Below are positions 8,937 through 24,456 of a stretch of 64,000 bases of DNA, piece after piece. A program made the position numbers and the translations under genes. The notes beneath the pieces were generated by a model. That model saw nothing but the letters and a program-made list of their open reading frames with translations. It was not told where the DNA came from and made no database searches. Every line of letters starts with the position of its first letter. Position 1 is the stretch's first letter. The stretch is from an uncultured Methylomirabilota bacterium (lineage in GTDB: Bacteria > Methylomirabilota > Methylomirabilia > Methylomirabilales > 2-02-FULL-66-22). Location: assembly GCA_963705305.1 (NCBI GenBank), contig OY970067.1, positions 209,714-273,713 on the forward strand, read 5' to 3'.

Positions 8937-8994
8937 GAGCCCTTGTACACATACAGCACCTGATTGTAAAGCTATTTCTGTTACAGATCACTAG
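7854..8994 (-). mobile_element. IS630-family insertion sequence, copy B (diverged paralogue of copy A), inserted in a CTAG site
   Basis: Inverted repeats GTGTTGTGTAA (7857-) and TTACAGATCAC (-8991), flanked by C-TA and TA-G. The transposase stop codon TAG (7856-7854) is formed at the IS/target junction. Confidence 0.85.
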
Positions 8995-10590: not shown

Positions 10591-12135
10591 TCACGCGTTC
10601 TGCTCCTGCGTGAGTGCGCGCCTGACCGCAGGCTTCAGGGCAACGAGCCCAAGCAGGCCCGCGATGATGTCGAAGATGCCAGCGATATAGAACGGAACCT
10701 GGAAGCTGCCCCCAAGGAATGCAACCAGCACTGCGGCCCCCCAGCCTCCGAGAATGGCCGAGAATCCCTTTGACGTGTACAAGATCCCATAGGTCGCCGT
10801 GACATACCTGGGGCCGAACACATCGCCGAGGCACGCGGGGATCAGCGCGGAGGTTTCTCCCCAGGACAGGAACACGATGGGTAGAAGCACGACGAAGAGT
10901 ATGGGCATGCCAGTAATCTGGGTGACCAGCAGAATGAGCAGTCCCTCGAGGGAGAAGGCGATGGCCATCGTGTTCTCCCGGCCAATCCTATCGGATACTG
11001 ACCCCCACATGATCCGGGAGAGCGAATTGGCGACCCCACCGATCGTCGCGGTGAAGGCTACGAGGGAGATCCCGAGCAGCTTCACGCTCTGGACGTTGAG
11101 CGATCGGGCGAGCTCGGACATGTGCCCAATTGTCATCAGGCCACCCGTGGTCATCACGAGGAACTGGAAGTACATGATGTAAAACTCCCGCCGGCCGAGC
11201 GACTGTTGCCAGGTGTAGTTCACCTTGGACTGGAGGACGCTGCCCGACGCCTTCGGTACCCACCCGGCCGGTGTCCACCCTTCGGGAGGATGCCGCAGAA
11301 TCATCGCCATGGCGAAGGCGACCACTCCCAAGATCACCCCCCAGATTGCCATCGCGTGCGCCCAGCCCATGGAGGTGATGCTTTCTAGCCGTTACACAAA
11401 GGTGTTGATAACGGTCGGCGTTTCGCTAGTAACGGCATGAATTGGTTGACCGAATCGGAACGCCTTGTCGGGGAAGAAATCTTCCTCGATGTCAGCTCAA
11501 TCCGAAAAGGACGGAATGCGCTGTAACCACAGAGGAATCGCGCCTATTGACAAGCGAATCTTCAACACCTTTGTGTAGCGGGTAGTGATGCTTTTGGAAA
11601 TGGGAATGATGGTCAGGGCGGCCCCCCCGCCAAATCCAGCGCTTGTGAGGCCGGTTGCCAGTCCCCGCCGATCCGGGAACCACTTGACGGCATTGCCGGC
11701 TGCTGCAATATATATGATCCCTGCCCCTGTGCCCGTGAGGAAACCGTAACAGAGGTAGAGGCCAAATACCGACTGGACCATCGCGCCGCCGAGGAGCCAC
11801 CCGACGAGGATCATGCACGACCCGATCGCCATGAGCGTCCGAATCCCGAATCGATCTACCAGGATCCCAGCGATGGGGACTGGCCAAGTCTGAAAGAGGA
11901 TGTACAGGGAGAAGATGACCGCAATTTCGGAGTACGGGACCCCCGCAAACTGCTGTTTTAGACCCGGTGTAAAGAGGGTGAACGCATACTGATAGTTGGA
12001 TATCACCATCATCGAAATGACCCCGGCACACAGTTGCACGACCCGGTTTCCCCTAAACGAACCGAAGAGTTCTTTTGCGAGGTCCTGGCCTGTCGCTGCA
12101 ACCGCCTCGATTCGGCCTGTGGTCCCGTTCACCAT
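10591..12135 (-). pseudogene. MFS transporter (oxalate/formate antiporter-like) interrupted by a 201-bp MITE
   Basis: The N-terminal ORF (11497..12135) and C-terminal ORF (10591..11370) are both MFS-like. Removing 11385-11585 plus one 9-bp duplication restores ...IPISKSIT-SMGWAHAMAIW... in frame. Confidence 0.8.
11385..11585 (+). mobile_element. MITE-1 copy a (201 bp, non-autonomous)
   Basis: About 24-bp TIRs: CTAGCCGTTACACAAAGGTGTTGA / TCAACACCTTTGTGTAGCGGGTAG. Perfect 9-bp direct repeat TGATGCTTT at 11376-11384 and 11586-11594. 194/201 identical to the reverse complement of 54373-54573. Confidence 0.9.
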
Positions 12136-12707
12136 GACCGGCCTCCTTTCAAGTCCTCAGGACTTGATCGAGAGCACCTCCGCCCCGAAACCCTTCGCAA
12201 ACCGAAGGAGAAACAATTGAAAGCGAAGCAAAACCTCCAAAAACGACGCGCATCCGTACCTGCACATGGAAGTCAACGACCAGCGTCGAAGTCGACCCTA
12301 AGAGGGTCGATCTCGAGCCCTACCGAAACATATGGTCTCGGATGCGAGGACAAATGAGTCGTGCACAGGTCCTCTGTAGTCCCAGGGGGCCTGGCATCTG
12401 ACATGGCGGGAACATTGGCCCGAAGGAGAATAGGAGCGATAGAAGATGGTAGCGACGTGCATTTCGGCAGCGAGCGATGCCACGCCCTGTTTTGCCGATC
12501 TATCTTGCAGCCGGCAACTCCTCGATAGCTTCATAGTTGCGTTCAGCCTGGGGATTGGCTAATCCTTGTAGTACCGGGATTTTCCTTGCGGCAGGTCGAG
12601 GGCGAGGGCGCCACCGAATTCAGGAACCCAAACCCCCCAGATCTTGCGATATGTCCGCCGCCCTATCCTTAATGCTCTTTCCGATCTCCCTGAGTTTCTC
12701 ATCAATG

Positions 12708-13092
12708 AAGGGCCCTGGCAATTCGCGCAAATTGCGGCAGCGCTAACCGCGCGACACCTGCCGTTTCCATCCTCCGATGACACCGGCCTTCAATAACACA
12801 ACAGCCCCTGGGGATCCGTGATCCACCGGGGGCCGTAGGGTTCGCACGCCAGGAGCTTTCCGGCCGGCATCGTTGCCTCCTTCAGGCCGCCTTGCTGGGC
12901 ACCGAATTCATTCGGGCCAGACGCTACCGCTCATCGGAGGGGGAAGTCAAGGTGCAAATGTGGAAAGACGGAGGTCAGAGGTCCCTGATCAGCCGTCAGT
13001 GGTCAGAGATCAGCCGTGAGCGGTTAGCCATCAGCCGAGGAATGACCACGGACCGCTGACTATCGTCAAGGTGCTGGGGGACGTCCCCTTTT
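12708..13092 (-). repeat. A-type miniature element, copy A1 (degenerate left terminus, conserved A core, low-complexity tail, ACGTCCCC right terminus)
   Basis: The core at 12795-12960 aligns with 17690-17870 and 23330-23480. The right end GGGGGACGTCCCCTTTTCA (13076-13094) matches the E-type right termini. Confidence 0.65.
12804..12833 (-). terminator. terminator-like hairpin inside A1 (minus strand)
   Basis: GC-rich hairpin GCCCC..GGATC-CGT-GATCC..GGGGC, followed on the minus strand by the U-rich GUUGUGUUAUUG. Confidence 0.35.
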
Positions 13093-13126
13093 CACGGCCG
13101 GGTGAGGCCTCATCCCCTGCCGTTCG

Positions 13127-13582
13127 TCAGCTCTCGACGCGCTCCCATGTGAGCGAGGACTCGAGGACACCCACGGGCAGTGGAGGCGCAAGCCGTAGCA
13201 CCAGCCGATTGCCGGTAAAGGTGAAGAGCCGCTTCCGGTCCGTCCCGACCGCGTTGGGGACCTTGTCGAGCTCCACATGGTGGACCACGGATCCCTCCCC
13301 GGCGTCTACGTCGTAGGTGCCACAATAGGCCACAAGACCGTTCATGGCTGACCTGATCTCCTGCTCGGCGGGATTGCTTGGGATCACCCACTTTGGTCGA
13401 GCCGGATTCATGAGGACGGCGCACATCCGCTTGGCATCGATGTACATCAAGTAGCCGACGCCGTTCGGGCCGAGATCGGGGCTCGGGCGCGTCGTCCCGT
13501 CGGCCATGAGCTGTTCGGTCGAAACCAGGCGCCACACCCCGATGAACTGCCTTGCCACAGCATCTTGGGATCGTGCCCGCAT
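13127..13582 (-). CDS. lipocalin-like domain protein
   Basis: FIGVWRLVS motif typical of the lipocalin-like domain. ATG 13582 has ACGGAGGGG upstream; the ORF-track start at 13636 is probably too long. Confidence 0.55.
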   Translation of the reverse strand: MRARSQDAVARQFIGVWRLVSTEQLMADGTTRPSPDLGPNGVGYLMYIDAKRMCAVLMNPARPKWVIPSNPAEQEIRSAMNGLVAYCGTYDVDAGEGSVVHHVELDKVPNAVGTDRKRLFTFTGNRLVLRLAPPLPVGVLESSLTWERVES

Positions 13583-13753
13583 CTGTGCCCCTCCGTTTGG
13601 GAGATGACGGCTAACGAAAGAAGTTAACCGGCCCACCCGGCGACCGGGCGATGGGTGGAGAAGAGAAAGGTGAAGGACGGAAACATGAAACCCGACACCA
13701 CCGGTCGGGCCCGAGTTGAACGATGGGTTCCGTGCGCCATGGACGCGCGCTCC

Positions 13754-14206
13754 CTAGAGCCAGCGCCGTACATCATTCTTGTAATGAACCCAGGCTGAGC
13801 CAAACGTACGAGCCAACCAAGGTTCTTCGGCGTGAATGACGCGGAAATGGAAGGCGAAGGCCACCAAGACCGTGTAGACGAGTAATCCGCGCGACCCAAA
13901 CGCGGACGACCAGCCGAGAAGGACGAAGATGACGGCAATGTACATGGGGTTCCGCGAATAGCGATAGAGGCCGCTCGTCACCAGGTGTTTGGGTGGCGCC
14001 CACGGGGCGAGTGTCCCTTTGCCCGAGACATAGAAATCGCGGACGCACCAGAGAAGCGCCAGAAAGCCGATGCCCAGCGGGATCAAGCCCAAAGGATGAA
14101 GGAGCGCAGTGTGTGAGCTACGCCAAAGCCAGGCGAGGGGAACAAGGATCCCGACCACGCCTGGTAGTGCGAGGAAGGCTAGAACTGCACGTGGGAACAT
14201 GTGCAC
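13754..14206 (-). CDS. isoprenylcysteine carboxyl / phospholipid methyltransferase family membrane protein
   Basis: TSGLYRYSRNPMYIAVIFVLLGW motif and multiple TM helices. Start is GTG 14206 or ATG 14200. Confidence 0.75.
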   Translation of the reverse strand: MHMFPRAVLAFLALPGVVGILVPLAWLWRSSHTALLHPLGLIPLGIGFLALLWCVRDFYVSGKGTLAPWAPPKHLVTSGLYRYSRNPMYIAVIFVLLGWSSAFGSRGLLVYTVLVAFAFHFRVIHAEEPWLARTFGSAWVHYKNDVRRWL

Positions 14207-14242
14207 CTACCGACCGCGCTCACTCGCCGTCGCTTATCACCT

Positions 14243-14300
14243 GGGACGTCGCCAATTTCACCAACTTGCTGGCGAAACGGCCGCAACCCGTCTTCCGTGC
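14243..14300 (+). repeat. solo A-type left terminus
   Basis: GGGACGTCGCCAATTTCACCAACTTGC aligns with 17612- (GGGGACGTTGCCAATTTCGTCAACTCGC) and 23244-. No recognisable A core follows it. Confidence 0.5.
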
Positions 14301-14554
14301 CTGCAGATGGGCACGCAGCATCGTCTATCAAATGACGGTACTACCTGCCCCGTCATGCCCCGTCAAGGCCGCTTGGACGGTCCGGGCGCCCTCCACCGGA
14401 CGATGCTACCGGGGCTAGAGCGGCGCGCCATCCTTCAGGATGGCACGGACCGCACGGATCTCGTAGTCCGCCTCGCGGTGCCGTCGCGTCCATCCCCTGC
14501 CGCCGGCGCGCCAGGAGTGTCCGGGTGCAACGCCCTCCATTTCCGGTCGAGTGA

Positions 14555-14586
14555 CCTGCCCCCTCGAAAATGGGGGGCGGTTTTCG
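14555..14586 (+). terminator. intrinsic-terminator-like hairpin (plus strand)
   Basis: CCUGCCCCC-UCGAAAAU-GGGGGGCGG followed by UUUUCG. No plus-strand gene lies upstream. Confidence 0.3.
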
Positions 14587-14602
14587 ACTCGCCCCTCCTC
14601 CT

Positions 14603-15796
14603 CTACTTATAGTGGATTGAGCCGACGGTGTGCTTGGCGATGTAATCCCAGTTATAGGAGACTCCCAGACCGGGCCCCTGGGGAATCGGAACGCAACCCG
14701 CTGCATCGATCCCGTCGAAATCCCCGTCCGCGTAGCCGTCCGTGTACAGGCCCTCGGTGTAAAAGGGATGCGAATGCCGGTCGATCTTCGGATGGACCAG
14801 CCCCCATTCGTAGTAGTTGGAATTGCGGATTGCCGCGAGGCAATGGCGGGTCGGGGGATCCCCCAGATGAATCTCCACATCGATGCCGAGGCTCTCGGCG
14901 GCGTGGGCGAGTTTCATCGTCCCGGTGATCCCGTCCAGCCTCACATCGCCCCGCACGAAATCCGTCGCCTCGGCGAGGAGGACGTTCATCCGTTGTTCTA
15001 CGCCGCGGACATGCTCTCCCTGGAGGAGGGGGGTCTTGATCATCTGGCGCAATCTCCGGTGCGCGAAGTTGGATTGCCCCATGTCCTGGAAGGGATCTTC
15101 CAGCCAGAAGAACCCCTCCTCGTCGCAGGCCCGCCCGACCTTCAGGGCCTCCCCGAAGGTCGCATAGGCATTGGCCGGATCGAGCATCAGGTCCATCCGG
15201 CCCCCCACGCGCTTCCCGACCGCGTGGATCAGCGCGACCTCGCGGGCAATCGGGCCCTGCCACCACGGATGAATCTTGAACCCGCGGTAGCCCTTCTCGA
15301 GGCAGACCTGGGCGAAATCGGCAAAGGCCTCTGGAGAATCCAGGCCGCCGCGCTCATCGCCGAAAGCCGTGCTCGCATACACGGGGAGCTTCTGTCGGAA
15401 CCCCCCCAGCAGCTCGTAGATCGGCGCGCCATAGTACTTTCCCGCGATGTCCCAGAGCGCGATATCCACCGGCGCACTGCCCATGCGTCCGAGATGCCTG
15501 AGGATCCGGTTGACCTCGTTGTAGATCTTCTCCCGCTCTAGCGCGTTCTGACCAATGACAATTGACGCAATCCCCGCCATGGCGGCTGGCTCGATGACGG
15601 TGAAGGTCGATACGTATTCTCCCGTGATGCCGGCGTCTGTATGGATCTTGATGGCGTGCGACTTCCGACGAGTCACGGTGCCGGGCTCGTACACTTCTCG
15701 GGTCTCCAGCGTGCCAAAGTCTCGTCTCTCGCGCTCAAACTCGCAGAGTTCGATCCCGGTGATCTTGAGGTTTCTCTGGGCTGTCGCGTCTGTCAT
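14603..15796 (-). CDS. enolase-superfamily enzyme (mandelate racemase / muconate lactonizing enzyme family)
   Basis: Typical MR/MLE architecture (KIHTDAGITGE..., FKIHPW, MLDPANAY, WLEDP, GEH). ATG 15796 with GGAAGGAG RBS. Confidence 0.85.
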   Translation of the reverse strand: MTDATAQRNLKITGIELCEFERERRDFGTLETREVYEPGTVTRRKSHAIKIHTDAGITGEYVSTFTVIEPAAMAGIASIVIGQNALEREKIYNEVNRILRHLGRMGSAPVDIALWDIAGKYYGAPIYELLGGFRQKLPVYASTAFGDERGGLDSPEAFADFAQVCLEKGYRGFKIHPWWQGPIAREVALIHAVGKRVGGRMDLMLDPANAYATFGEALKVGRACDEEGFFWLEDPFQDMGQSNFAHRRLRQMIKTPLLQGEHVRGVEQRMNVLLAEATDFVRGDVRLDGITGTMKLAHAAESLGIDVEIHLGDPPTRHCLAAIRNSNYYEWGLVHPKIDRHSHPFYTEGLYTDGYADGDFDGIDAAGCVPIPQGPGLGVSYNWDYIAKHTVGSIHYK

Positions 15797-16063
15797 CCAA
15801 GTGCTCCTTCCGCCATGAACCGCGGGGCTCGAAAGTGGTTCGTCGGGGGGCCCGACCGGTTGCCCGTCGGCACGCGGCGAGACCGGCTCCGCCATTCGGA
15901 GGGTGCCGCGCCCGCCCTGCCGGGTGACTCAAAGAGGGTGGCAGTTCCAGGAGAATTGGCAAGCCCTGTGGGGCCGTGCACCGCGCACAGCTCACGTCAT
16001 CCTACGAGGCGTTCCCTGGACGCGAGCGAGAGCATAGCCCGCACCCGGTGCGAGTGCAAGCAA

Positions 16064-16312
16064 TACGGCGCGTTGGATTAATTGTCATATCTTGCCGCCG
16101 CCCGCCTCGCCAGGCTTCGGTACGCGGAATGCGGCGGCCTGCGAGGCATCCGTACCGTGATTGTGCCAGGGCTGGAGTGCTGGATCATCTTCCGAGACGA
16201 TCGGGGCCGCGCGGAATTCGGTTTCTGGCGGCTTGGCAAGGCCTTGCTTCGCTGTTGCTGAGGACACTGTCGCTGAGGATACTTGACAAATAAAGAGAAC
16301 GTCTCTCATCAC
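16064..16312 (-). repeat. E-type miniature element, copy E5 (most diverged)
   Basis: Termini GTTGGATTAATTGTCATATCTTG / GAGAACGTCTCTCATC. The core aligns with E1-E4, e.g. GTGATTGTGCCAGGGCTGGAG and GGCCGCGCGGAATTCGG. Confidence 0.6.
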
Positions 16313-16707
16313 ATCCGCGGCAGGGGCTTCACATCGGCGTCGGCACCCGCCGACCGCTCAACCGGATACCCGCATCGCACCCATGCCTCCATGCCGCCTT
16401 CGAGGTTGTAGACCCGCTCGCCGCCGAGCAAGGCGAGAACCTCGGCGCCGAGGGCGCTGATTGCTCCAATGCGGCAGACCACCACGATGTCGCGCTCGAG
16501 GGCGAGCTCGGCGTGGTGCTTGAAGAGCTCGTCTACCGGAAGGTTCCGGGCCCCGGCGATATGCCCCTGGGCGTACTCCCCCGGCAGGCGCACATCCACC
16601 ACCTGGGCCCCGCCCGTCTCGATGAGGGGTCGGGCGTCCGAAACCTCGATCCGGCTGAAGGGCTCCTCGGGGTCAGCCTCCCCCCCTCCCAGGGGACCGG
16701 TCCTCAT
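16309..16707 (-). CDS. rhodanese-like domain protein (sulfurtransferase)
   Basis: VVDVRLPGEYAQGHIAGARNLP and active-site loop VVVCRIGAIS. The start was chosen at ATG 16707; upstream ORF extension is high-GC read-through. Confidence 0.8.
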   Translation of the reverse strand: MRTGPLGGGEADPEEPFSRIEVSDARPLIETGGAQVVDVRLPGEYAQGHIAGARNLPVDELFKHHAELALERDIVVVCRIGAISALGAEVLALLGGERVYNLEGGMEAWVRCGYPVERSAGADADVKPLPRM

Positions 16708-16807
16708 GACTCCCGCGTCCTTCTTTCTCCCCTTTCGCCCGGACTTCGTTTCCCGGCGGCTTGCCAGAAACTCGCTTTGGTGCCGCTGAAGATATGATTT
16801 TGCTAGA

Positions 16808-17467
16808 TCAGCCCTTCCGCGCTGAGGCATCCAGCATCGCCTGGAGCAGCGTTTCCGGCGGCTGCGCTCCGGACACCGCGGCGCGGCGATTGAAGATGAA
16901 GCAGGGCACCGCGTTGATGCCGGCCTGCCGGGCTTCGAGGTCGACTCGCAACACGTCCTCCCGGCCGTCCTCGGACGCCAGGTAGGAGGCCAAAGCGGCG
17001 CGATCCAGGCCGGCACGCTCGCCGACGCTCGCCAGCGCCGCCTGGTCGGTGAGGTCGGCGCCATCCAGGAAATAGGCGCGGAAGAGCCGCTCCGCGACCG
17101 CGTCTTCATGCCCCTGCGTCGCACCGTAGAGCATGAGCCGGTGCGCGTTCAGCGTGTTCGGCTGCACCGTGATGCGGTCGAAGGCGAAGTCGATACCGAC
17201 TTCCCGGCCCACGCCCGCCACGCGCGCGTAGCTGTGGGCGTGGCCGGGGCCGAACTTGCGCTCGAGGTAGTCCTGGCGCGGCATGCCCGCGTCCGGCAGG
17301 TCCGGGTTGAGCTGGAACGGCAGCCAGCGCACGGCCGGCTTTCCCCCATCGGGCACGCGCTCCTGGTATAGCCGCAGTGCGGCTTCCAGGCGCCGCTTGC
17401 CGATGAAGCACCAGGGTCAGACGATGTCCGAGACGATTTCGATGGTAAGCGTGGGTTGAGCTTGCAT
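16808..17467 (-). CDS. DsbA/FrnE-like thiol-disulfide oxidoreductase with in-frame TGA at the CxxC Cys position (candidate selenoprotein, or a pseudogene)
   Basis: ATG 17467 (GAAAGGA RBS) gives MQAQPTLTIEIVSDIV-TGA(17419-17417)-PWCFIGKRRLE.... Both halves are in the same frame. The family consensus at this position is SD.VCPWC.IGK. Confidence 0.6.
17362..17415 (-). promoter_or_regulatory. candidate bacterial SECIS element
   Basis: It starts 1 nt after the UGA. Closing helix CCUGGU/ACCAGG encloses hairpin GCGGC-GCCUGGAA-GCCGC (17396-17379), whose loop carries GG about 30 nt after the UGA. Confidence 0.4.
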
Positions 17468-17607
17468 GCGCCGGTCCTTTCTGCTGGGAGTGGCCCCGAT
17501 GTGTCCTGGCGCGGCGTGCGGGGTGCCGGACGGGGCCATTATACCGTCGGAAGGGGCCTTTGTGGATCTCTTCATGGCCGCGAGCGTTCTTGCTCGTAAT
17601 GGACGCA

Positions 17608-17940
17608 ATGGGGGACGTTGCCAATTTCGTCAACTCGCGACGGCAACGGTCACGCCCACTCACCGCGCCTCTATCTTTCAGGGACACCGGCCTCTACGAA
17701 CCCAACAGCCCCCTGGGATCCCGTGATCCGCCGGGGGCTGTTGGGTTCGCACGCCAGGAGCTTTCCGGTCGGCATCTTCGCCTCCCTCAGGCCACCTAGC
17801 TGAGAGCGAATTGATTGCGACATGACGCTACCGCCTGTCGGAGGGCGAAGTCAAGATGGAAATGCGGGGGCCAGAAATCGGCTTTCAGAAATACGGGACG
17901 CCGCATTCCCTCCCAGACTTTGCCAACGTCCGCCTCGCGA
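17608..17940 (-). repeat. A-type miniature element, copy A2 (TIR-bounded, about 330 bp)
   Basis: Left end AATGGGGGACGTTGCCAATTTCGTC versus the reverse complement of the right end GAGGCGGACGTTGGCAAAGTCTGG. The core is shared with A1 and A3. Confidence 0.7.
17699..17747 (-). terminator. long hairpin / terminator-like structure inside A2
   Basis: AACCCAACAGCCCCC..GGATC-CCGT-GATCC..GGGGGCTGTTGGGTT forms a stem of about 20 bp. The minus-strand 3' flank is only weakly U-rich. Confidence 0.35.
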
Positions 17941-18182
17941 GGTTCCCGCAAGCAGAACTCGATGGCCTGCGAGCCCTCCACAAAGTGATGGTGCCAGGCC
18001 TGGAGTTTCGGATCATTTTCTGGGAGGACACGGACCGTGCAGATTTCGTTCTCCGCCGGCAAGCCGGGACCCCGCGCTGGTACCGATGGAAAGATTCGAC
18101 GGAGAATGCTACGTCTCCTCTTTCGGCGATACGCGGGGAGGTCGTTAGCAATTAGGACAATTAGGCCACAACGTCCCTTTTA
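17941..18182 (-). repeat. E-type element core, copy E1 (left terminus replaced by A2)
   Basis: Nearly identical to 20430-20667 over about 230 nt. The right end is GGCCACAACGTCCCTTTT. Confidence 0.75.
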
Positions 18183-18190
18183 CGCGGTTC

Positions 18191-18357
18191 ACAATTCCGG
18201 CGTACGAGAACGCGTGAGGACCCGCCCCGGGCCGGGAGGCGCGGCTGACTCTGCATGGGGTGGCCCCGGACCCCACGCCCGCAGGCTCCTCTGCCGCCGG
18301 GGCGCCCGGAGTGCCGGGAGGCTGCCTCCCTCCGAGAAGTTGTTTCAGAACCTACGT
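18191..18357 (+). repeat. F repeat copy 1 (relic of an MFS gene 3' end plus downstream hairpin)
   Basis: ACAATTCCGGCGTACGAGAACGCGTGAGG...GGGAGGCTGCCTCCC...CAGAACCTACG matches 19673-19767, with a roughly 70-nt internal insertion. Confidence 0.7.
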
Positions 18358-18360
18358 CCC

Positions 18361-18415
18361 GTATTACGTTGGTCTCGTCGGGAGGATTTGACAGATAATG
18401 CAACGTCCCCCATTA
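18361..18415 (-). repeat. solo E-type terminus
   Basis: GACAGATAATGCAACGTCCCCCATT is the inverted counterpart of the E-type left termini (GGGG.CG.TGCATTATCTGTC). No core is attached. Confidence 0.6.
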
Positions 18416-18431
18416 CTGAGGCCGAGGGACG

Positions 18432-19709
18432 ATGCGCCGCCCGCCGATCCGACCTCGCCTGCGGCCGCCACCGGCGGGATCCCCGGGACCGGCCGGCATG
18501 CGTGAAGCGCCCGCCTTCCCGGGGCCGGCCCGATCCCGGGCGGTCGTGGTGACCGCCCTGGGGACGGCCCAGACCTTGGCCTGGGCGTCAAGCTACTACC
18601 TGCCGGCGATCCTCGCCCATCCGATTGCCGCGGGGCTGGGCGTCCCGCACGCGTGGGTCTTCGCGGCCTTCTCGGCCGCCCTGCTCATCGCCGCCCTTGC
18701 CGGCCCCGTCGTGGGGCGAGGGATCGATCGCCACGGGGGGCGGGGCGTGCTCGTCCTCTCGAACCTGGTGTTCGCCGGCGGACTGCTCGCGCTCGCCGCG
18801 GCCACGGGCCCCCTCAGTCTCTTCGGGGCCTGGGCGGTGCTCGGCGTCGGGATGGCGCTGGGGCTGTACGACGCCGCGTTTGCCACGCTGACAAACCTCT
18901 ACGGCCGCGCGGCCCGCGGCCCAATTACCGGCATCACCCTCTTCGCCGGTTTCGCGTCGACGGTGAGCTGGCCGGTGTCCTCGCTCCTGATTGATATGCT
19001 GGGGTGGCGCGAGACCTGCCTCGTCTGGGCCGCCCTCAACCTGGGAATCTGCCTTCCGCTCAATCGCTTCCTCGTGCCGCTCGCCACGGAGCAGGCGCCT
19101 CCGCGCCGCGTGCCGGGAGCCCGGGTGGGGTGGAAGCCGCGCAGGGAGATGTTCCTGCTCGCCTTCGTGTTCGGGGCCGCCTGGTTCGTCACCGGCTCGA
19201 TGGCGGCCCACCTGCCGCGCCTCCTCGAACGGGCGGGGGCGACGCCCCTCCGGGCGGTCGCCATTGCCGCGCTGGTCGGGCCGGCCCAGGTCGCCGCGCG
19301 GCTGGCCGAGTTCTTCCTTTTGAAACGGACACACCCGGTGGTCTCGGCGAGGATCGCGACGACGCTCCACCCCATCGGCGCGGTCGCCCTGGCCTGTTGT
19401 CCGGGCCCCCTGGGGACAGTGAGCTTTACTGTCCTGTACGGGGCCGGGAATGGCCTGCTAACGATCGCTCGGGGCACGGTCCCGCTCGCCATCTTCGGTC
19501 CTCACGGCTATGGCGAGCGCACCGGCCTCCTCGGCGCCCCCGCCCGCGCCGCCCAGGCGTGCGCCCCGCTGGTGTTCGGGCTCTTGTTTGACGCCATGGG
19601 GCTTGCAGTCATCCTGGTCTCGGCGGGATTGAGCCTGGCCGCGCTGGGCGCCCTGCTGTGTCTGCGCGCAACCCCGGATCGGACAATTCCGGCGTACGAG
19701 AATGCGTGA
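18432..19709 (+). CDS. MFS transporter
   Basis: 425-aa ORF with about 12 hydrophobic segments. GAGGGA RBS; an alternative start is M23 at 18498. Confidence 0.8.
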   Translation: MRRPPIRPRLRPPPAGSPGPAGMREAPAFPGPARSRAVVVTALGTAQTLAWASSYYLPAILAHPIAAGLGVPHAWVFAAFSAALLIAALAGPVVGRGIDRHGGRGVLVLSNLVFAGGLLALAAATGPLSLFGAWAVLGVGMALGLYDAAFATLTNLYGRAARGPITGITLFAGFASTVSWPVSSLLIDMLGWRETCLVWAALNLGICLPLNRFLVPLATEQAPPRRVPGARVGWKPRREMFLLAFVFGAAWFVTGSMAAHLPRLLERAGATPLRAVAIAALVGPAQVAARLAEFFLLKRTHPVVSARIATTLHPIGAVALACCPGPLGTVSFTVLYGAGNGLLTIARGTVPLAIFGPHGYGERTGLLGAPARAAQACAPLVFGLLFDAMGLAVILVSAGLSLAALGALLCLRATPDRTIPAYENA

Positions 19710-19767
19710 GGGCCCGCCCCGGGCCGGGAGGCTGCCTCCCCTCGAGAAGCTGCTTCAGAACCTACGG
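19673..19767 (+). repeat. F repeat copy 2 (overlaps the last codons and stop of the MFS gene)
   Basis: Direct repeat of 18191-18357. It encodes ...TIPAYENA-TGA and then the GGGAGG-CTG-CCTCCC hairpin. Confidence 0.7.
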
Positions 19768-19890
19768 CCTTATTCGATGGCTCAAGACTTCCCGCAACCG
19801 CAGAGCGACCGGAGTCGGCCTGGCGAATTCCCCGGCCGCATCTGCTATACTCCCGGCAAATCTGCGGCCCATTCCTACTGGAGGGCGCCC

Positions 19891-20385
19891 ATGGACGAAC
19901 CGGTATTCATCGAGTCACGGGACGAGATGGAGCAGATCCTGCGGGAGGAGGTGCTGGGTCACCTGGGCCTCGCGGGCGACGGGCAGCCGTACGTGGTGCC
20001 CGTCAATTACGCCTACCTGGCCGGGAGGATCCTGTTCCACTGCGCGCTCGCGGGCCAGAAGCTCGACGCCATCCGCCGCAATCCCCACGTCTGTTTTACC
20101 GTCAGCCGGCAGCGGGGGGAGATGCGGGACCACACCGGCGCCCCCTGCCACATCGACAGCGACAGCGTGATCTGCTACGGCCGGGCGAGGCTCCTCGAGG
20201 ACCTCACGGAGCGGGCCGCCGCGCTGAACGCCTTCAACCGCCGCTACCGGCCCGATGCGCCCGATCTCCCGGTGGATCGGGTGGCGCAGTGCATGGCAGT
20301 CGAGATCACGATTGCCGTGATGACCGGGCGGCGGGAGCGAGACCGCCACCGCACGTACTGGCGCGCCATCTTCCATCCGCAATAG
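19891..20385 (+). CDS. pyridoxamine 5'-phosphate oxidase family (FMN-binding split barrel) protein
   Basis: ATG 19891 with GGAGGG RBS. MDEPVFIESRDEMEQILREEVLGHLGL..DGQPYVVPVNYAY is typical of the family. Confidence 0.8.
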   Translation: MDEPVFIESRDEMEQILREEVLGHLGLAGDGQPYVVPVNYAYLAGRILFHCALAGQKLDAIRRNPHVCFTVSRQRGEMRDHTGAPCHIDSDSVICYGRARLLEDLTERAAALNAFNRRYRPDAPDLPVDRVAQCMAVEITIAVMTGRRERDRHRTYWRAIFHPQ

Positions 20386-20667
20386 GGGCCGCTGCATTAT
20401 CTGTCCTGCCGGCGCCCGTCCCGCCAGCCCGCGCCAGGCGCAACTCGACGGCCTGCGAGCTCTCCACAACGTGATGGTGCCAGGCCTGGAGTTTCGGACC
20501 ATTTTCTGGGAGGACACGGACCGTGCAGATTTCGTTCTCCGCCGGCAAGCCGGGACCCCGCGCTGGTGCCGATGGAAAGATTCGACGGAGAATGCTACGT
20601 CTCCCCTTTCGGCGACACGCGGGGAGGTCGTCAGTGATTAGGACAATTAGGCCACAACGTCCCCTTT
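20381..20667 (-). repeat. E-type miniature element, copy E2 (complete)
   Basis: Termini AATAGGGGCCGCTGCATTATCTGTC / GGCCACAACGTCCCCTTT. The core is almost identical to E1. Confidence 0.75.
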
Positions 20668-20951
20668 TCATGAGATTCGGTGACGGACAAGGGCAATTCG
20701 GCTAGCAGTCTGTCGAAGTCACCCAAATACCTCTCGAAGAGATCGATAAAGAATCCGACGTAGGCAGCTATATTATCCGGCCAATCGAGATGCGCACGAT
20801 GAGACTGCACCTCACCTTGGAGTCCCTTGAGGGTCTCGATGCACTTGGCAGTTTCAGCCCGCCAATCTCGGATGTGCGCAAGGATCGTGTCCATGGAGAC
20901 ACCGGTGTAATCAGTCATCCCAGCCATGAGAGAACGCTCTCTGACAGTCAT
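20631..20951 (-). CDS. hypothetical protein (106 aa); the C-terminal 13 codons and stop come from element E2
   Basis: ATG with GGAGGA RBS and lower G+C than the surroundings. No recognisable domain. Confidence 0.5.
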   Translation of the reverse strand: MTVRERSLMAGMTDYTGVSMDTILAHIRDWRAETAKCIETLKGLQGEVQSHRAHLDWPDNIAAYVGFFIDLFERYLGDFDRLLAELPLSVTESHEKGTLWPNCPNH

Positions 20952-21067
20952 TGGCCGTCAATCCTCCGCCCCAACTCCACGAAAAATAATCCTTTGCGTG
21001 GCAAGCTGCACGTAGAACAGCACCCCGACCGGTGCCGGGTGGAGTCGAGCATACCAATAAAGCAGTG

Positions 21068-21297
21068 CTGAGGGAGGCCGCACTATTTGTAATATGCCGC
21101 CGCCGCCCGCCTACCAGGCTCTTCTAGACAGGACTTGATGGCACGTAATGCCTCCACTCCGTGATGGCGTCAGGACTGGATCCGCGGATCGTTTGCCAAA
21201 GGGCACAGGCCGCGCGGATTTCGTTCCCTAGCGACCTGCCGGGATCCCACTTCGGTGCTGTTGGAAAGATTCCACAGATAATGCTATTTCCCCCATT
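21068..21297 (-). repeat. E-type miniature element, copy E4
   Basis: Termini GAGGGAGGCCGCACTATTTGT / AATGCTATTTCCCCCATT. The core aligns with E1-E3 with substitutions and 1-nt indels. Confidence 0.65.
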
Positions 21298-21318
21298 ACA
21301 GGAATCAACCCATTATCT

Positions 21319-22152
21319 TCAGGCAATTCGTGCTAAAGCCTTTGCTGCGATCGCCTTATAGGCGAGCGCCTCCATGAGACTGTCCTCGGTGCCAAAGAGG
21401 GTATATGCGTCAATGTTCATGAGCGAAAGTCTCTCAAGGAAGGGACCGCGCTGACTTCTTGGGAGCCGATATTTCACAAGAACATCCTGATGGGCATCGG
21501 CTTTTTGAAACACTTCCTCGTGACTAGCGTAACTGCACCAACTATTCCGGATGACCCTGCAAATCGTGTACTCGCTCTGCTGCCGGAAATGCAGGGGAGT
21601 AGTTACGATATTGGGCCCCAGCCCCATAATATGTGGCTCATTCTCATCCCATATCTTCGCTTCCCCCGTATATTCCTGAAAGTAATAGACGGCGACTTCC
21701 TCATCAGGATCTTCGTGGGTCCTCTTTGCACATGCTGCCGATCGGAAAGCAAAGAAAGCAGCGACATATGGAGACTCCGACCAGTCGAGAAGCGGAGACG
21801 GGAATCCGTGATGTCTTAGGTAGACCATGAATTCGTATCCAAAAGGTGCCTGGTAAGGTTCCGGCCCCTCCTCTGGGTATGCGCCGATGTCCCAGCGTTT
21901 CTCCGTCACAGACTCGACGGGTTTCTGGAGAAAGTTGCGGAGCACCCTCCAGCATTCCTTCGTCGTATACGGGTGGTCCGTATACCTCTCTAGCGTCGTT
22001 TTTAGCGGCCAGGAGGCCTTCTCTTGCCCCCGAAATAGAGGCGGGGGGATATAGAGACCCGGAGCCTTCTTGCATGTCTCCGAATACCGACGCAAAACCT
22101 CACCGACCGCGCGCCCAAAGTCCTCCCAACTCGAAAGCACTAATTCTTTCAT
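21319..22152 (-). CDS. FRG domain-containing protein
   Basis: PPLFRGQEKASWPLKTTLER matches the FRG-domain signature. AGGAAA RBS. G+C is visibly lower than the window average. Confidence 0.75.
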   Translation of the reverse strand: MKELVLSSWEDFGRAVGEVLRRYSETCKKAPGLYIPPPLFRGQEKASWPLKTTLERYTDHPYTTKECWRVLRNFLQKPVESVTEKRWDIGAYPEEGPEPYQAPFGYEFMVYLRHHGFPSPLLDWSESPYVAAFFAFRSAACAKRTHEDPDEEVAVYYFQEYTGEAKIWDENEPHIMGLGPNIVTTPLHFRQQSEYTICRVIRNSWCSYASHEEVFQKADAHQDVLVKYRLPRSQRGPFLERLSLMNIDAYTLFGTEDSLMEALAYKAIAAKALARIA

Positions 22153-22163
22153 TGAATTTTCCT

Positions 22164-22383
22164 ATGGTGAGAGACGTCGCATTACTTGTCATATTTTGTC
22201 GGATCCACCAAGCGGATGGATGGCCAGCTAGCCCTCTACGGCGTGATGGTGCCAGGACTGGAGTTTCGGATCATTTCCTGGGAGAACACGGGCCGCGCGG
22301 ACTTCATTTCCTGGCGGCTTGCCGGGACCACGCCCTGGTGTCGATGGAAAGATTCGACAAACAATGCAACTTCCCCTGTCATT
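22164..22383 (-). repeat. E-type miniature element, copy E3
   Basis: TIRs GAGAGACGTCGCATTACTTGTC / GACAAACAATGCAACTTCCCCTG (15 of 21 positions match). The conserved core includes GTGATGGTGCCAGGACTGGAGTTTCGGATCATTTCCTGGGAG. Confidence 0.7.
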
Positions 22384-22405
22384 CACCCGATCGGATCGTT
22401 CCTAG

Positions 22406-23104
22406 TCAATGAATCCAGGCCACCCGGAATGGTTTCTGCCAGTCGTACTGAACTACCGGAACCACCCGAGAGAGACCAGCAGCTTCAATAAGAAGTTTGT
22501 AGTCCTTCAAAAGGCGCTCCAAAAGATCGAGACACGCGTCAAGATCTCCGTAGGTCGGCAAGTGCCGCATTGGGTGCATACTGCGGTGCGCCACATGCCT
22601 GTTCACAAAGCGTCGCAGCTTTCTTTCTGCCGCAAGGAGTTCGCGCTCGTGTTTGCGAACTACAGCAGGATTGATTTGGTCCGTACCCCTTTTTGCATAG
22701 TGCTCAAAGGATCGATTCCCCAACGTCCGCATCCGTCCCGAGCGATAGAGGCCAACATAGCGGCGCCGGCTAATTACCTCGGGATGGTCTCTGACGTCCT
22801 GGATTAGCCTGAGTAGTGAAATTGAGCGGCTGTCTTTGTCCGTCTGTCGCCTGATGGCGACCGCCATGTCAGCCACGTACGCGCGGTTCATCCAACTGTA
22901 GAAGACGCTGGGCACCTGAAGTTCGGGATTGGAGGCAATCATTGCCTGGACTTCCCGGTACACGTGGCGGTCGAGCGCCATCTCGACAATCTCGTCATAG
23001 ATGCACCGAAGCCAGCGCTTCCAGCGCAGATATACGCTGCGCCGTCTGGATGCAGACGTGATCGCCTGAGGCTTCGGGGGGGCCTTTTTCCTCTTCCTGC
23101 TCAT
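22406..23104 (-). CDS. hypothetical protein, possibly HEPN/Abi-like
   Basis: 232 aa with a basic N-terminus and an Rx4H-type motif, RFVNRH(VAHR). Lower G+C, GAGG RBS. The domain call is weak. Confidence 0.45.
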   Translation of the reverse strand: MSRKRKKAPPKPQAITSASRRRSVYLRWKRWLRCIYDEIVEMALDRHVYREVQAMIASNPELQVPSVFYSWMNRAYVADMAVAIRRQTDKDSRSISLLRLIQDVRDHPEVISRRRYVGLYRSGRMRTLGNRSFEHYAKRGTDQINPAVVRKHERELLAAERKLRRFVNRHVAHRSMHPMRHLPTYGDLDACLDLLERLLKDYKLLIEAAGLSRVVPVVQYDWQKPFRVAWIH

Positions 23105-23235
23105 GCTGACCTCGTCTGGCTGCGGCGGACCCGAACGATTAGATCAGAACTCCTTTGGGCGACCGGTGGCCGTTCGATTTGACCGTCCGCTGGCGTATGG
23201 CACCCACTACCTAGCCCTTGTTTAAGGGGACGCGT

Positions 23236-23713
23236 ATTTGATGGGGGACGTTGCCACTTTCGTCACGTTGCCGCAAGCATCATGCATCGCTGGGCGCGTG
23301 CCATCCTCCCAGGTTCCCGTTCCTACAAAAACACAACAACCCCATAGGATCCCAAGATCCGCCGGGGACTGTCGGGTTCGCACGCCAGGAGCTTTCCGGT
23401 CGGCATCTTCGCCTCCTTCAGGCCGCCTAGCTGGTGTCTGAATTCATTCGGGCAAGACGCTACCTCTCACCGGAGGGGGAAGGCAAGGGAAAAATACAGA
23501 GGACGGGGGACCGGAGACGGGAGACAGAGGTCAGGAGTCAGAGGTCGGGGGTCGGGGGTCAGCCAAGGAATGACTACGGACCACGGACCTGGGACAGGGG
23601 ACCGAGGACCGGAGACGAGGGAGGGGAGACGGCCAGAGGATGACCACAGACTACTGACTACTGACCACGGGCCAGAGAGGGGAAAGGGCCTCCAGCCAGG
23701 AGAGGGACCAAAC
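23236..23713 (-). repeat. A-type element, copy A3, with a long purine-rich low-complexity tail
   Basis: Left terminus GATGGGGGACGTTGCCACTTTCGTC and core at 23330-23480. The tail (23480-23713) holds GGACCGGAGACG and GACCAC(A/G)GAC-type repeats. Another left-type terminus starts at 23714. Confidence 0.6.
23340..23367 (-). terminator. terminator-like hairpin inside A3 (minus strand)
   Basis: Hairpin CCCC..GGATC-CCAA-GATCC..GGGG, followed on the minus strand by GUUGUUGUGUUUUUGUAGG. Confidence 0.4.
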
Positions 23714-23849
23714 AGGGGGACGTACGCAATTTATTCAACTTACGTGGAGGCTACCATGAAAATCCATCATGGCATGTTCGATTTTCATGGTACGTTTCGA
23801 TCAATCCCCCGGTTGTTGACGACAGGCCGAATTGGGTGGATTCCAGCGC

Positions 23850-24086
23850 CTAGGCCGCATCCAGGGTGTAAACGGGCACCTCCGCGACACGGCTGGGGGT
23901 CGGCTCGGACGCCAGCAGGGCCTCAATGCGCTTCACCGTCTCTGCCGAGAACGTCTCCTCCCCGCACTGCCTGCACACTAGCGCCGGCACCTGCTCAATC
24001 GAGACGAGCTTTCCGTGAACGTCGGCGGTGAAGGTCACCCGCCTGGAATCCTCGGTTCCTCCGCATACCGGACACCTACTATCCAT
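23850..24086 (-). CDS. YgiT-type zinc-finger protein (MqsA-N-like; putative antitoxin)
   Basis: CPVCGG...CRQCGE zinc-ribbon pattern. ATG 24086 with GGAGGA RBS, overlapping the upstream gene by 8 nt. Confidence 0.75.
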   Translation of the reverse strand: MDSRCPVCGGTEDSRRVTFTADVHGKLVSIEQVPALVCRQCGEETFSAETVKRIEALLASEPTPSRVAEVPVYTLDAA

Positions 24087-24456
24087 TATCAATCCTCCGG
24101 CTCCGCCAGTTCGACCACTCATGCGGATCGGGCTCGTAGACTGTTACAATCCGCGTCCGGGCGAGCGCAATCTGGATGTGGAGCGGCCGGCCCGTTTCAG
24201 TAAAACCCAACAACAAGAGGCTTGGACCGTACTTATCTTGGAGGTACTCCTCGACAACTTCCGCATTGGCAATCGCCTGCTCGATTTCGTCCGTCCGGAT
24301 TCCCTGCCGAAGCATGCGACCTACCGCATGCCGAGAGATCTCGTAGCGGCCCGAGCGGAAAGCAGCGCGAATCGCCTCCAGCTGTTCCCGGCTTTCGTCA
24401 GGCACAATTGGAATCATACCAAAAACGGGCGAGGCGGTCCAATCCCCGGCGGACAC
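24079..24456 (-). CDS. DUF4258 domain protein (putative toxin partner of the YgiT protein)
   Basis: ISRHAVGRMLRQGIRTDEIEQAI...GFTETGRPLHIQI is the DUF4258 pattern. The start codon is uncertain (GTG 24456 or ATG 24417). Confidence 0.7.
   Translation of the reverse strand: MSAGDWTASPVFGMIPIVPDESREQLEAIRAAFRSGRYEISRHAVGRMLRQGIRTDEIEQAIANAEVVEEYLQDKYGPSLLLLGFTETGRPLHIQIALARTRIVTVYEPDPHEWSNWRSRRIDNG

Follow-up and report, generated by a model that had tools for sequence, protein, structure and literature searches.

The island occupies positions 12.7 to 23.7 kb of the 64-kb stretch of DNA that was analyzed (the window), beside thyX. The genes located between its non-coding elements, from 13127 to 23104, are mutually unrelated in Pfam. 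Specifically, the minus strand carries genes for lipocalin_5 (13127 to 13636), PEMT (13754 to 14206), an enolase-family protein (14603 to 15895), a rhodanese (16309 to ~16706) and DsbA (16808 to ~17467). An MFS gene (18432 to 19709) and a PNPOx-family gene (~19892 to 20385) follow on the plus strand, and the minus strand then encodes a 106-aa protein for which no family was named (20631 to 20951), FRG (21319 to 22152) and HEPN_AbiU2 (22406 to 23104). Hence, the two plus-strand genes contradict a preliminary description of this DNA in which all intervening genes lay on the minus strand. That description also called the cargo low in G+C, which applies to the cassettes at 20.6 to 23.1 kb (52 to 56%) but not to the rhodanese, DsbA and MFS genes (69 to 73%). 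The MFS cassette has a partial duplicate, found by repeat search. The enolase-family gene has left the metabolic operon setting in which it is usually found, indicating that the cargo is an assembled set and not an old cluster.

Two families of inverted-repeat-bounded elements

Two related families of elements had been proposed for the 11-kb island, and repeat searches and MAFFT alignments revealed that both are real. The E family comprises six full copies and two fragments, and the A family three copies and two solo ends. Together they fill nearly all intergenic gaps, each gap containing one non-coding, inverted-repeat-bounded element with unrelated genes between, as had been described. When nhmmer profiles made from the window copies were run over the whole 64-kb window, the matches were confined to 12.7 to 23.7 kb and to the plus strand, with all 11 copies pointing one way, as initially reported. 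The elements, of 220 to 510 bp, matched no Rfam family.

Five E copies were matched with E values of ~1e-61 to 1e-71. E5 (16064 to 16312; match to 16309, E=8e-61, and alignment) abuts the rhodanese stop codon. E1 with a 57-nt extension spans 17892 to 18182 (match to 18123, E=1e-71), E2 with its extension 20383 to 20667 (match to 20609, E=5e-67), E4, between the FRG and 106-aa genes, 21069 to 21300 (match to 21298, E=3e-63), and E3, between the AbiU2 and FRG genes, 22166 to 22383 (match 22168 to 22380, E=2e-62). A solo E right end, GACAGATAATGCAACGTCCCCCATTAC, lies at 18366 to 18415 (nhmmer E=1e-6). Two members were additional to those first listed: E6, a degenerate full copy with an A-like left end, TGGGACGTCGCCAATTTCACC (14239 to 14540, E=1e-8), and an internal fragment (model positions 147 to 205) in the rhodanese/DsbA gap (16737 to 16795, E=2e-10). 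In the repeat search, E1 and E2 are 96% identical and E1 and E3 81% identical over 159 nt; A1 and A3 are 83% identical and A1 and A2 65% identical over 155 nt.

The A copies matched with E values of 1e-91 to 1e-118. A1 (12708 to 13092; match 12705 to 13091, E=5e-118, alignment, and motif matches at 13077/13088) has a degenerate left end and, at its right, the palindromic GGGGGACGTCCCC followed by TTTTCACGG. A2 (17608 to 17895, E=8e-91) begins with GGGGGACGTTGCCAATTTCGTCAAC and contains a perfect 17-bp hairpin (17697 to 17749) detected by inverted repeat search; its boundary with E1 falls at ~17892 to 17895 rather than at 17940, as first placed. In A3 (23228 to 23713; match 23241 to 23611, E=9e-117), the tip is duplicated (GGGGACGCG...GGGGGACGTTGCC) and the tail is long, heptad-like and of low complexity. 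A3 is followed on the plus strand by a solo A-like left end, GGGGGACGTACGCAATTTATTCAAC, found by repeat search (23714 to 23750), and by a 35-nt palindrome, CATGAAAATCC-N-TCGATTTTCATG (23755 to 23789, inverted repeat search). This palindrome, at which the variable region ends on the thyX side, is conserved in relatives (L008/9/11/16, L014, L015, L017 and L018).

The terminal motifs of 21 to 23 nt gave no match across 100 shuffles. Their reported absence from the rest of the window is true of the longer motif but not of the bare 8-mer GGGGACGT, which has seven occurrences in the island and two beyond it (35558 and 40893; chance expectation, 4.2). Several observations point to movement or recombination: E1 and E2, extensions included, have 261 nt in common at 90% identity between unrelated flanks, tandem duplication of element tips is seen in L005, L011 and L016 and at A3, and in L003 an A copy adjoins a truncated ISLre2-like transposase gene.

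An intact element encoding a Y1 transposase

The nearest homolog of the island enolase-family gene has an intact element in front of it. This element, the sole intact one, lies on a single 8.5-kb metagenome contig (L020) of uncertain relatedness and spans positions 2312 to 3390, with 24-nt inverted ends (GGGGACGTTGGTGCTGAAAACAAC / GTTGCTTTCAGCACCAACGTGCCC) around a 330-aa ORF. The encoded protein matched Pfam Y1_Tnp with 29.9 bits (cut-off 23), NCBIfam REP_Tyr_transpos with 60.9 bits, below the curated cut-off of 80, and, weakly, a Bac_DnaA_C-like helix-turn-helix (HTH) with 19.6 bits, below the 31.5 cut-off. Its translation shows an HUH motif, NHFHLL, and a tyrosine motif, RYIHLNP. No target duplication was seen flanking the element.

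By sequence comparison, the E elements are homologous to the 5′ end of this Y1 element. Downstream of a like end, the E copies keep the decayed first ~40 codons of the Y1 protein on the plus strand, the end-to-coding distance being 58 nt in L020 and 113 nt in E6. The best-preserved remnant, that of E6 (MPRQGRLDGPGALH..., 14355 to 14477; tblastn and DNA alignment), matched residues 1 to 41 in tblastn with 39% identity (E=0.018). The N-terminal remnant of E2 (20429 to 20542) gave 37% in tblastn and the same identity, over 38 aa, in pairwise BLASTP (E=7e-5). When the translations of five E copies were combined in a profile, hhalign aligned it with the Y1 protein, columns 1 to 39 corresponding to residues 1 to 39 (E=7e-5, probability 63%). 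At the DNA level, E and L020 are ~75% identical around the ATG, as judged by eye, and the nhmmer E profile matched L020 weakly at 2364 to 2477. The right end of the E1 extension, CACAACGTCCCTTTTACGCGG, resembles that of L020, CACCAACGTGCCCTTTTTCGCGG. The A left end is like the L020 left end as far as CAACTT, and nothing in the L020 element resembles the A core. An intact Y1 gene was found neither in the 64-kb window nor in ~100 kb of thyX-linked loci of relatives, and no pair of empty and filled sites was found.

Thus, E has the look of a MITE/REPIN-like derivative with an internal deletion, and A that of a chimeric relative. The elements had been thought to belong to no described kind, a view at odds with the L020 element, which has the same type of ends and encodes a Y1/HUH (IS200/RAYT-like) transposase. 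Its like ends and the transposase remnant in E make non-autonomous transposon derivatives (MITE/REPIN/PATE-like) the best reading. We regard it as probable that E and A are non-autonomous relatives of a Y1/HUH, RAYT/IS200-like transposon, gathered by Y1 mobilization in trans.

Ordinary MITEs moved by a TA-duplicating DDE transposase of the IS630/Tc1-mariner type appear very improbable. Two IS630-family copies do lie near the island, 4 to 6 kb off (~6083 to 7256 and ~7855 to 8994), TA or TG directly precedes many element ends (GTA before ATGGGGG or AAAGGGG), and TA flanks some elements on each side, extended E1 and L011a among them. However, the ends of both IS630 copies (CTAGTCTACCG... and CTAGTGTTGTG...) are unrelated to GGGGACGT and the island element ends, and GTAAAA lies inside the L008/L010 breakpoint, making it part of the element rather than a duplication. 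Moreover, L020 lacks a TA duplication, and DDE cut-and-paste does not predict a single orientation.

The A core and its conservation at thyX

The strongly conserved A core, of ~165 nt, is present in at least six related genomes, each time just downstream of thyX, and the A copies of relatives all have the same orientation relative to thyX, like the 11 window copies. Comparison of 20 distinct copies (window, L003 and 15 metagenome loci) shows a near-invariant core between free flanks. Invariant positions match TTGAC...TA..GT with a spacer of 18. In A1, the minus-strand core (12788 to 12951) contains a putative −35 element, TTGACT (12946 to 12951), a putative −10 element, TAGCGT (12921 to 12926), an SD and ATG near 12866 to 12880, and a hairpin with a U-rich tail. 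The A2 core (17690 to 17855, minus strand; −35, 17850 to 17855; −10, 17825 to 17830; z=-5.7) and the A3 core (23323 to 23487, minus strand), which is directed at the AbiU2 gene, are likewise candidate RNA units.

A structure of 27 pairs was 94% paired across the A cores versus 42 to 54% in slid controls. By our count ~20% of pair cells are G-U, and the structure therefore fits the minus strand only. With such strong conservation across the family, covariation is modest. The hairpin persists through sequence change, and the tail is still U-rich in divergent copies. The A core thus looks like a small minus-strand transcription unit, and its promoter-like hexamers suggest that it may be transcribed.

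These features are also what might be expected if A, and perhaps E, were host regulatory modules (promoter, leader or small RNA) for accessory and defense genes, and if duplication and gene conversion had spread them locally. In line with such a role are the uneven conservation of A and its strand-specific structure, the fixed place of the first A copy beside thyX or thyX′, and the direction of the core toward a co-directional downstream gene in ~13 of 15 cases in our tally of ORF maps. The minus (mRNA) strand of E is the more stable in four of five copies, and in six of seven folded E entries when E1 and E2 with their extensions are included. Against it, the inverted ends are common to the transposase-bearing L020 element, E contains a transposase remnant, and one L003 gene is cut short by an A end. 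Further, the A promoter is a consensus-like match that a simple promoter scan did not call, and the small ORF is under no protein-level constraint (entropy of 14.5/9.3/12.0 by codon position). We consider this origin quite unlikely.

Comparison with known systems and a proposed origin

The layout of the island invites comparison with integron arrays and with CALINs, which are attC clusters without an integrase. Here too, genes, among them TA- and defense-type genes and most without an evident promoter, alternate with uniform inverted-repeat-bounded elements in one orientation. In an integron-like platform the elements would be recombination sites at which a dedicated site-specific recombinase encoded elsewhere inserts and excises circular gene-plus-element units; the GGGGACGT tips would be core sites and A a promoter-bearing entry module. 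Consistent with this are the single element per gap, the compact spacing (E copies start 0 to 23 nt past a stop codon, and the E3 left end is 16 nt from the FRG start codon), the mixed cargo (52 to 73% G+C) drawn from unrelated contexts, and the partly duplicated MFS cassette. The thyX locus carries different cargo between direct A copies in at least six genomes, and the variable region is bordered by a conserved palindrome. In L011, L014, L019 and L012, duplicates of the thyX 3′ end (41 to 129 nt) bear the signature of site-specific integration at this locus.

However, a tyrosine or serine recombinase was found neither in the window nor at any related locus, IntI is absent, and the earlier statement that the island itself lacks a transposase or integrase proved correct. 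The ends do not match RYYYAAC/GTTRRRY and differ from R″/R′ boxes; the elements are two to four times the length of attC, and E DNA folds as a single strand no better than shuffled sequence (z ~0 to -2.2). With no R/L boxes, exceptional hairpin or integrase, the termini are indeed not attC-like. Breakpoints between shared cassettes are not consistently at the motif, and recombination sites would have no reason to contain the transposase-gene remnant of E. Of the cassette analogy, then, the arrangement, the orientation and the lack of an island recombinase stand, and new cassette recombination sites are not the best reading; such a platform is possible, if unlikely.

The Y1 reading has parallels of its own. 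RAYTs are REP-associated tyrosine transposases, and REPs are short palindromes with a GTAG head; REPtrons reportedly contain a RAYT gene between inverted REPs, and REPINs are said to be REP doublets. Similarly, a G+C-rich sequence flanks the L020 Y1/HUH gene on both sides as inverted copies, the same inverted sequences bound extragenic non-coding derivatives, and the GTAA before many island element ends recalls the GTAG head. In contrast to REPs, the ends here are not short self-complementary palindromes, the derivatives are long, with part of the transposase gene kept in E, the copies seen cluster at one locus in one direction, and the L020 protein has an extra HTH and scores below the RAYT cut-off. 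The Y1 HUH transposase, the gene-less deletion derivatives and the intact copy without visible target duplication also recall IS200/IS605 elements and PATEs. Orientation bias, as observed here, is expected from the single-strand transposition of IS200/IS605. Classical IS200/IS605 ends, however, are asymmetric subterminal hairpins without inverted repeats, unlike the ~24-nt inverted repeats of L020, and we found no TnpB, omega-RNA or demonstrable conserved tetranucleotide target. The family therefore fits neither IS200/IS605 nor REPs exactly. Neisseria Correia elements and ERIC/BIME-type repeats are likewise small inverted-repeat elements in operon intergenic spacers that may supply promoters or fold in mRNA once co-transcribed, but those are dispersed genome-wide in both orientations, whereas the A core is a conserved module bound to one chromosomal locus across genomes.

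Besides this imperfect fit, the lack of an intact Y1 gene in the loci covered and the lack of an empty/filled site pair, other points count against the Y1 reading. The homology between E and the transposase covers about 40 residues, and the copies lie at one locus, in every gap and in no gene, while random transposition predicts otherwise.

In the origin that we favor, the autonomous form would be a ~1.1-kb unit with ~24-nt inverted ends starting GGGGACGTTG. Its single gene would encode an IS200/RAYT-type Y1 (HUH, single-tyrosine) transposase that carries a DnaA_C-like helix-turn-helix at the C terminus. E would represent internal-deletion derivatives that keep the left end, the 5′ leader, the first ~40 to 55 decayed codons and the right end. 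A would combine a like left end and various right ends with a different conserved core that, on the minus strand, may specify TTGACT-N18-TAnnGT and a structured ~125-nt RNA with an SD-ATG and the U-tailed hairpin. A Y1 enzyme whose gene lies elsewhere in the genome would have moved these units in trans as single strands, leading to strand- and orientation-specific insertion without target duplication; such insertion, followed by exchange between copies through recombination or gene conversion, could explain the uniform orientation. The island is a variable, defense-gene-rich region beside thyX that is also found in related Methylomirabilota-like (NC10) bacteria. The elements would have built up downstream of thyX in a permissive region of horizontally acquired genes, where the A core may provide promoters or leader RNAs to the gene that follows it.

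Repeat families of the island and their ends

Repeat searches over 11.0–25.5 kb recovered two families, E (E1–E6 plus fragments) and A (A1–A3 plus solo ends), from the intergenic gaps of the island beside thyX, and multiple alignments confirmed both. nhmmer profiles built from the copies and run on the whole window matched E at 16064–16309, 17892–18123, 20383–20609, 21069–21298 and 22168–22380 (E = 1e-61 to 1e-71), a degenerate copy, E6, at 14310–14470 (E = 1e-8), a fragment at 16737–16795 and a right-end fragment at 18366–18415; A was matched at 12705–13091, 17608–17895 and 23241–23611. All copies in the window fall on the + strand, and no significant match to either family was obtained in the window outside 12.7–23.7 kb. 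The preliminary description, which placed co-oriented repeat families in the island and nowhere else in the 64-kb window, was thus borne out with small corrections, every copy being confined to one 11-kb stretch of the 64 kb covered out of the 5.65-Mb source contig.

The elements are 218–510 bp in size, non-coding, and bounded by terminal inverted repeats of 12–25 nt, which read (T)A(A/T)(A/G)GGGGACGTTGC from outside to inside. The long terminal motifs had zero occurrences in shuffled sequence, and the proposal that the end motif is restricted to the island stood for them; it failed for the less specific bare 8-mer GGGGACGT, which occurs seven times in the island and twice outside, against 4.2 expected. 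TA or TG often borders the ends, and neither a clean target-site duplication nor an empty site was found in the window or the related loci. Alignment A7, which comprises 20 distinct A copies, shows a nearly invariant conserved interior (the A core) with modular flanks. Two types of left end occur, alpha (GGGGGACGTTGCCAATTTC...) and beta (AAAGGGGACGTTGCATTAC...), of which beta is the E-type end of the window; the right ends fall into several types, each an inverted GGGGAC....

A six-frame E query against 5.8e9 proteins revealed no protein-level relatives, and a coding or pseudogene family of another kind was accordingly rejected for E. The E core pattern had no matches in genome, metagenome and viral collections, a strict A 21-mer had none in genomes or viral contigs, and blastn against plasmids returned nothing for either family. 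In line with the first inspection of the sequence, no Rfam family matched at gathering score in the whole window; at E up to 5, the sole match in 12.0–24.5 kb was a spurious lncRNA. A literature search for publications on repeats or MITEs in Methylomirabilis/Rokubacteria, or on thyX-linked islands, found nothing relevant.

The genes between the elements are mutually unrelated, encoding lipocalin-like, PEMT, enolase-superfamily, rhodanese, DsbA, MFS, PNPOx-like, FRG and HEPN_AbiU2 proteins (Pfam) and a 106-aa unknown. They had been thought to lie all on the minus strand and to be lower in G+C; instead, the + strand carries two of them and their G+C spans 52–73%. Homologues of the enolase-family gene are located in sugar-acid operons, never beside DsbA or rhodanese, and hence the island is a set put together from single genes.

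Genes and sites alternate in the island with all sites in one orientation, and the cassette-like layout seen earlier is real. These are also features of an integron array. Integrons have an IntI tyrosine recombinase, with attI adjoining the array, and attC sites have ends R'' RYYYAAC and R' GTTRRRY and fold as a stable single-stranded hairpin from both ends. In agreement with the first inspection of the sequence, Pfam searches on all sizeable ORFs of the island, its flanks and the related loci detected no integrase, and the E and A ends are not attC-like, containing no RYYYAAC. Attempts to fold E as single-stranded DNA with DNA parameters gave MFE z-scores of about 0 to −2.2, with the ends pairing in some copies only, and attC-like folding was rejected on these values.

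Other repeats were noted in and around the island. The repeat search placed a duplicate of part of the MFS 3' end at 18191–18359, just upstream of the intact MFS gene and followed by a solo E right end; compared with 19683–19769, it is a partial copy of the MFS 3' end plus downstream spacer, with 96% and 82% identity. The arrangement points to an MFS–PNPOx–E unit that was duplicated in tandem long ago and later underwent deletion. A separate 201-bp MITE at 11385–11585, unrelated to E and A, divides an MFS gene into 10591–11370 and 11497–12135; its inverted ends are 24 nt long, CTAGCCGTTACACAAAGGTGTTGA, and it is flanked by a clean 9-bp target duplication, TGATGCTTT (11376–11384 and 11586–11594).

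An intact Y1 element probably related to E and A

The closest homologue of the enolase-family protein (81% identity) is encoded on L020, an 8.5-kb metagenome contig, where an intact element directly precedes it. This element has the left end GGGGACGTTGGTGCTGAAAACAAC, then a promoter-like stretch and a 330-aa ORF, and the right end GTTGCTTTCAGCACCAACGTGCCC, then TTTTTCGCGG; by our count its 24-nt inverted ends are identical at 22 of 24 positions. The 330-aa protein passes Pfam Y1_Tnp with 29.9 bits and scores 60.9 bits, under the cut-off of 80, against NCBIfam REP_Tyr_transpos (REP-associated tyrosine transposase). It harbors an HUH motif, NHFHLL, and a YxHxNP tyrosine motif, together with a weak DnaA_C-like HTH match. 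No such Y1 gene is present in the window, and the contexts of other close enolase-gene homologues contained no further Y1 elements.

On the + strand, downstream of an L020-type left end, E contains a decayed copy of the N-terminus of the Y1 protein. The distance from the left end to this coding copy is 58 nt in L020 and 113 nt in E6, in which the remnant reads MPRQGRLDGPGALH compared to MPRQARLDAPGTLH in L020. With the L020 protein as query, tblastn matched residues 1–41 to E6 and E2; pairwise BLASTP of the E remnant against the protein gave E = 7e-5, and a profile of five E translations aligned its columns 1–39 to residues 1–39, likewise with E = 7e-5. Pfam returned nothing for the E translations. 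The DNA of E and L020 is alignable around the start codon, a 57-nt extension behind E1 and E2 has a terminus like the L020 right end, and the alpha end of A is similar to the L020 left end.

The shared ends and the Y1 N-terminal remnant thus argue that E is an internally deleted derivative of an L020-type element, a comparison drawn with one intact copy from a different organism over ~40 codons, and that A, whose interior is different, is a chimeric relative. Rather than being of no described kind, as first supposed, E and A appear most plausibly to be non-autonomous derivatives from a Y1 (RAYT/IS200-like) family of transposons that have inverted ends, located in a thyX-linked accessory/defence hotspot. 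The autonomous parent would be a Y1 gene between GGGGACGTTG ends.

Like MITEs, the elements are small and non-coding with terminal inverted repeats, and they are related in sequence to an autonomous element with the same ends, albeit over the same few codons of a single intact copy. A gene between inverted copies, as in L020, is the RAYT/REP arrangement. REPs are 20–40-nt imperfect palindromes with a 5' GTAG/GTGG head. Many E and A ends are headed GTAA(T/AA), and the self-complementary stems of the ends are only 4 bp. IS200/IS605 elements have asymmetric ends with subterminal hairpins and lack inverted repeats; the E, A and L020 ends differ in being clear inverted repeats.

Two other transposase families were considered. 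The window contains two different IS630-family insertion sequences (DDE_3 plus HTH) at ~6083–7256 and ~7855–8994, both on the minus strand, with ends beginning CTAGTCTACC... and CTAGTGTTGTG...; IS630 was rejected as the parent because the ends of both copies are unrelated to E and A. In L003 (GCA_040961615.1), a related locus, a frameshifted ISLre2/UPF0236-like transposase gene lies at 12054–13786 on the minus strand, its 3' end cut off by the A left end GGGGACGTTGCCAC at 12317. It was rejected as the mobiliser since it lacks GGGGACGT ends, an A copy has truncated it, and none of the other loci contains a homologue.

The thyX locus and the A core

The relatives of ThyX carry the label Candidatus Methylomirabilales or candidate division NC10, with the nearest being 88% identical to the window protein and the next about 77%. 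L003 carries two A copies just downstream of thyX. A relaxed A-core pattern retrieved 15 metagenome loci, and nhmmer found A copies in all 15, often as two direct copies per contig, separated by 1.3–1.8 kb and a single gene. Upstream of thyX, the window, L003 and L008 keep synteny; everything downstream is different. The downstream cargo of the related loci is largely defence-like, including DUF3800 and ORF6N, an AAA_15/AAA_21 ATPase with HNH, an SMC-like ATPase, DNA methylases and a PLD-SNF2 helicase. The orientation of A relative to thyX is identical wherever thyX is visible (the window, L003, L008/9/11, L014, L017 and L018).

Downstream of thyX, or of a 3' fragment of it that has been displaced, a conserved 35-nt A+T-rich palindrome, CATGAAAATCGA-N11-TCGATTTTCATG, follows after ~110 nt (window 23755–23789; L008 1281, L011 9166, L014 979, L015 28, L016 1794, L017 6311 and L018 1995). 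The palindrome sits exactly at the switch from conserved sequence to variable cargo and could serve as operator or as recombination site. Diverged duplicates of the thyX 3' end (last 41–129 nt, 75–90% identity) lie 1.3–1.6 kb downstream of intact thyX at L011 9259–9387, L014 2350–2405, L019 638–706 and L012 1994–2077. Ahead of them are small inserts, either a TA module with a 240-bp inverted-repeat element or a DUF4143 ATPase gene, in which no integrase was found. The duplicates are the mark of past integration into the thyX 3' end; unlike these relatives, the window has no second thyX 3' fragment.

Between thyX and the palindrome, the window also encodes a DUF4258/MqsA-like zinc-ribbon gene pair (23850–24456), likely a toxin–antitoxin module. 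CCGGGGATTG flanks it on either side (about 24445 and 23815), possibly as a short insertion duplication. In L008, another ~240-bp element at 2789–3029 (L011 10674–10914) immediately follows thyX, with inverted GGGGAC-type ends GGGGACGTGCCGGTTCTTG... and GGGGACATTGTACTG..., which shows that the superfamily has further sub-families.

On the window's minus strand the A core contains TTGACT, an 18-nt spacer and TA(G/C)(C/T)GT, with invariant promoter-like positions T,T,G,.,C and T,A,.,.,G,T; a simple promoter scan called no promoter in it. The core also includes a structured segment with GGAGG-N5-ATG, and a long hairpin followed by a U-rich run that remains U-rich where the sequence differs. A 27-pair consensus structure is 94% paired, compared to 42–54% in slid controls. 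About one fifth of its cells are G-U by our count, so the structure works on the minus strand only; covariation is modest. In about 13 of 15 cases (our tally of ORF maps) the gene at which the core points runs in the same direction, and we therefore read the core as a candidate unit of a promoter with a leader or small RNA.

The small ORF that begins at the ATG of the core (MPxGKLLACEP...) was rejected as a real peptide, its variation showing no third-position excess and hence no constraint on the protein. On the + strand, the A core is succeeded by heptad-like tracts of low complexity at 12960–13060 and 23495–23700, which thus lie upstream of its putative promoter; they are also present downstream of the core in L006, L019 and L017. 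Examples of their units are GTCAGAG/GTCGGGG/GGACCGG and, in relatives, CAGCAGG repeats, and length and sequence vary among copies.

Formation of the array

Y1/HUH transposases act on single strands, and insertion in the IS200/IS605 family has an orientation tied to replication and occurs without target duplication. Single-strand Y1/HUH transposition would fit the uniform orientation, the lack of duplications (L020) and the GC skew, which is constantly negative across the window. Recombination between copies probably contributed as well. E1 and E2 match at 90–96% over their right 261 nt and differ over the first ~50 nt, part of the MFS 3' end has been duplicated (18191–18359), and element tips are tandemly duplicated in several loci. 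The three window A copies have common features missing from the metagenome copies, which argues for spread or homogenisation of A within the lineage rather than its import with each gene.

Transposition does not account for an element in every gap, only here, nor for A being fixed beside thyX. Both the integron-like cassette mechanism and a purely regulatory role of the elements are therefore live alternatives. In its strongest form, which we regard as unlikely, the array would be a working integron-analogous gene-capture platform run by a Y1/HUH (RAYT-like) enzyme, with single-stranded REP-like ends serving as cassette boundaries, so that foreign genes, largely of defence type, become stacked in a set orientation downstream of thyX, and with the A core as a dedicated small RNA or leader driving or gating each captured gene. 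If so, integron-like capture of genes would have a second route that works by a different mechanism.

Located ahead of unrelated defence genes (AbiU2, DUF3800, methylases and a PLD-helicase), the conserved A core is a candidate for a small RNA or leader of ~125 nt. If E and A are indeed Y1-transposon derivatives, they would constitute an undescribed, lineage-specific family in the poorly studied Methylomirabilota/NC10, unusual in its inverted ends, strict co-orientation and tie to one chromosomal hotspot, with some units possibly carrying passenger genes (DUF3800). They would also provide a handle on how the thyX-adjacent defence/accessory island of this clade is built and reshuffled.
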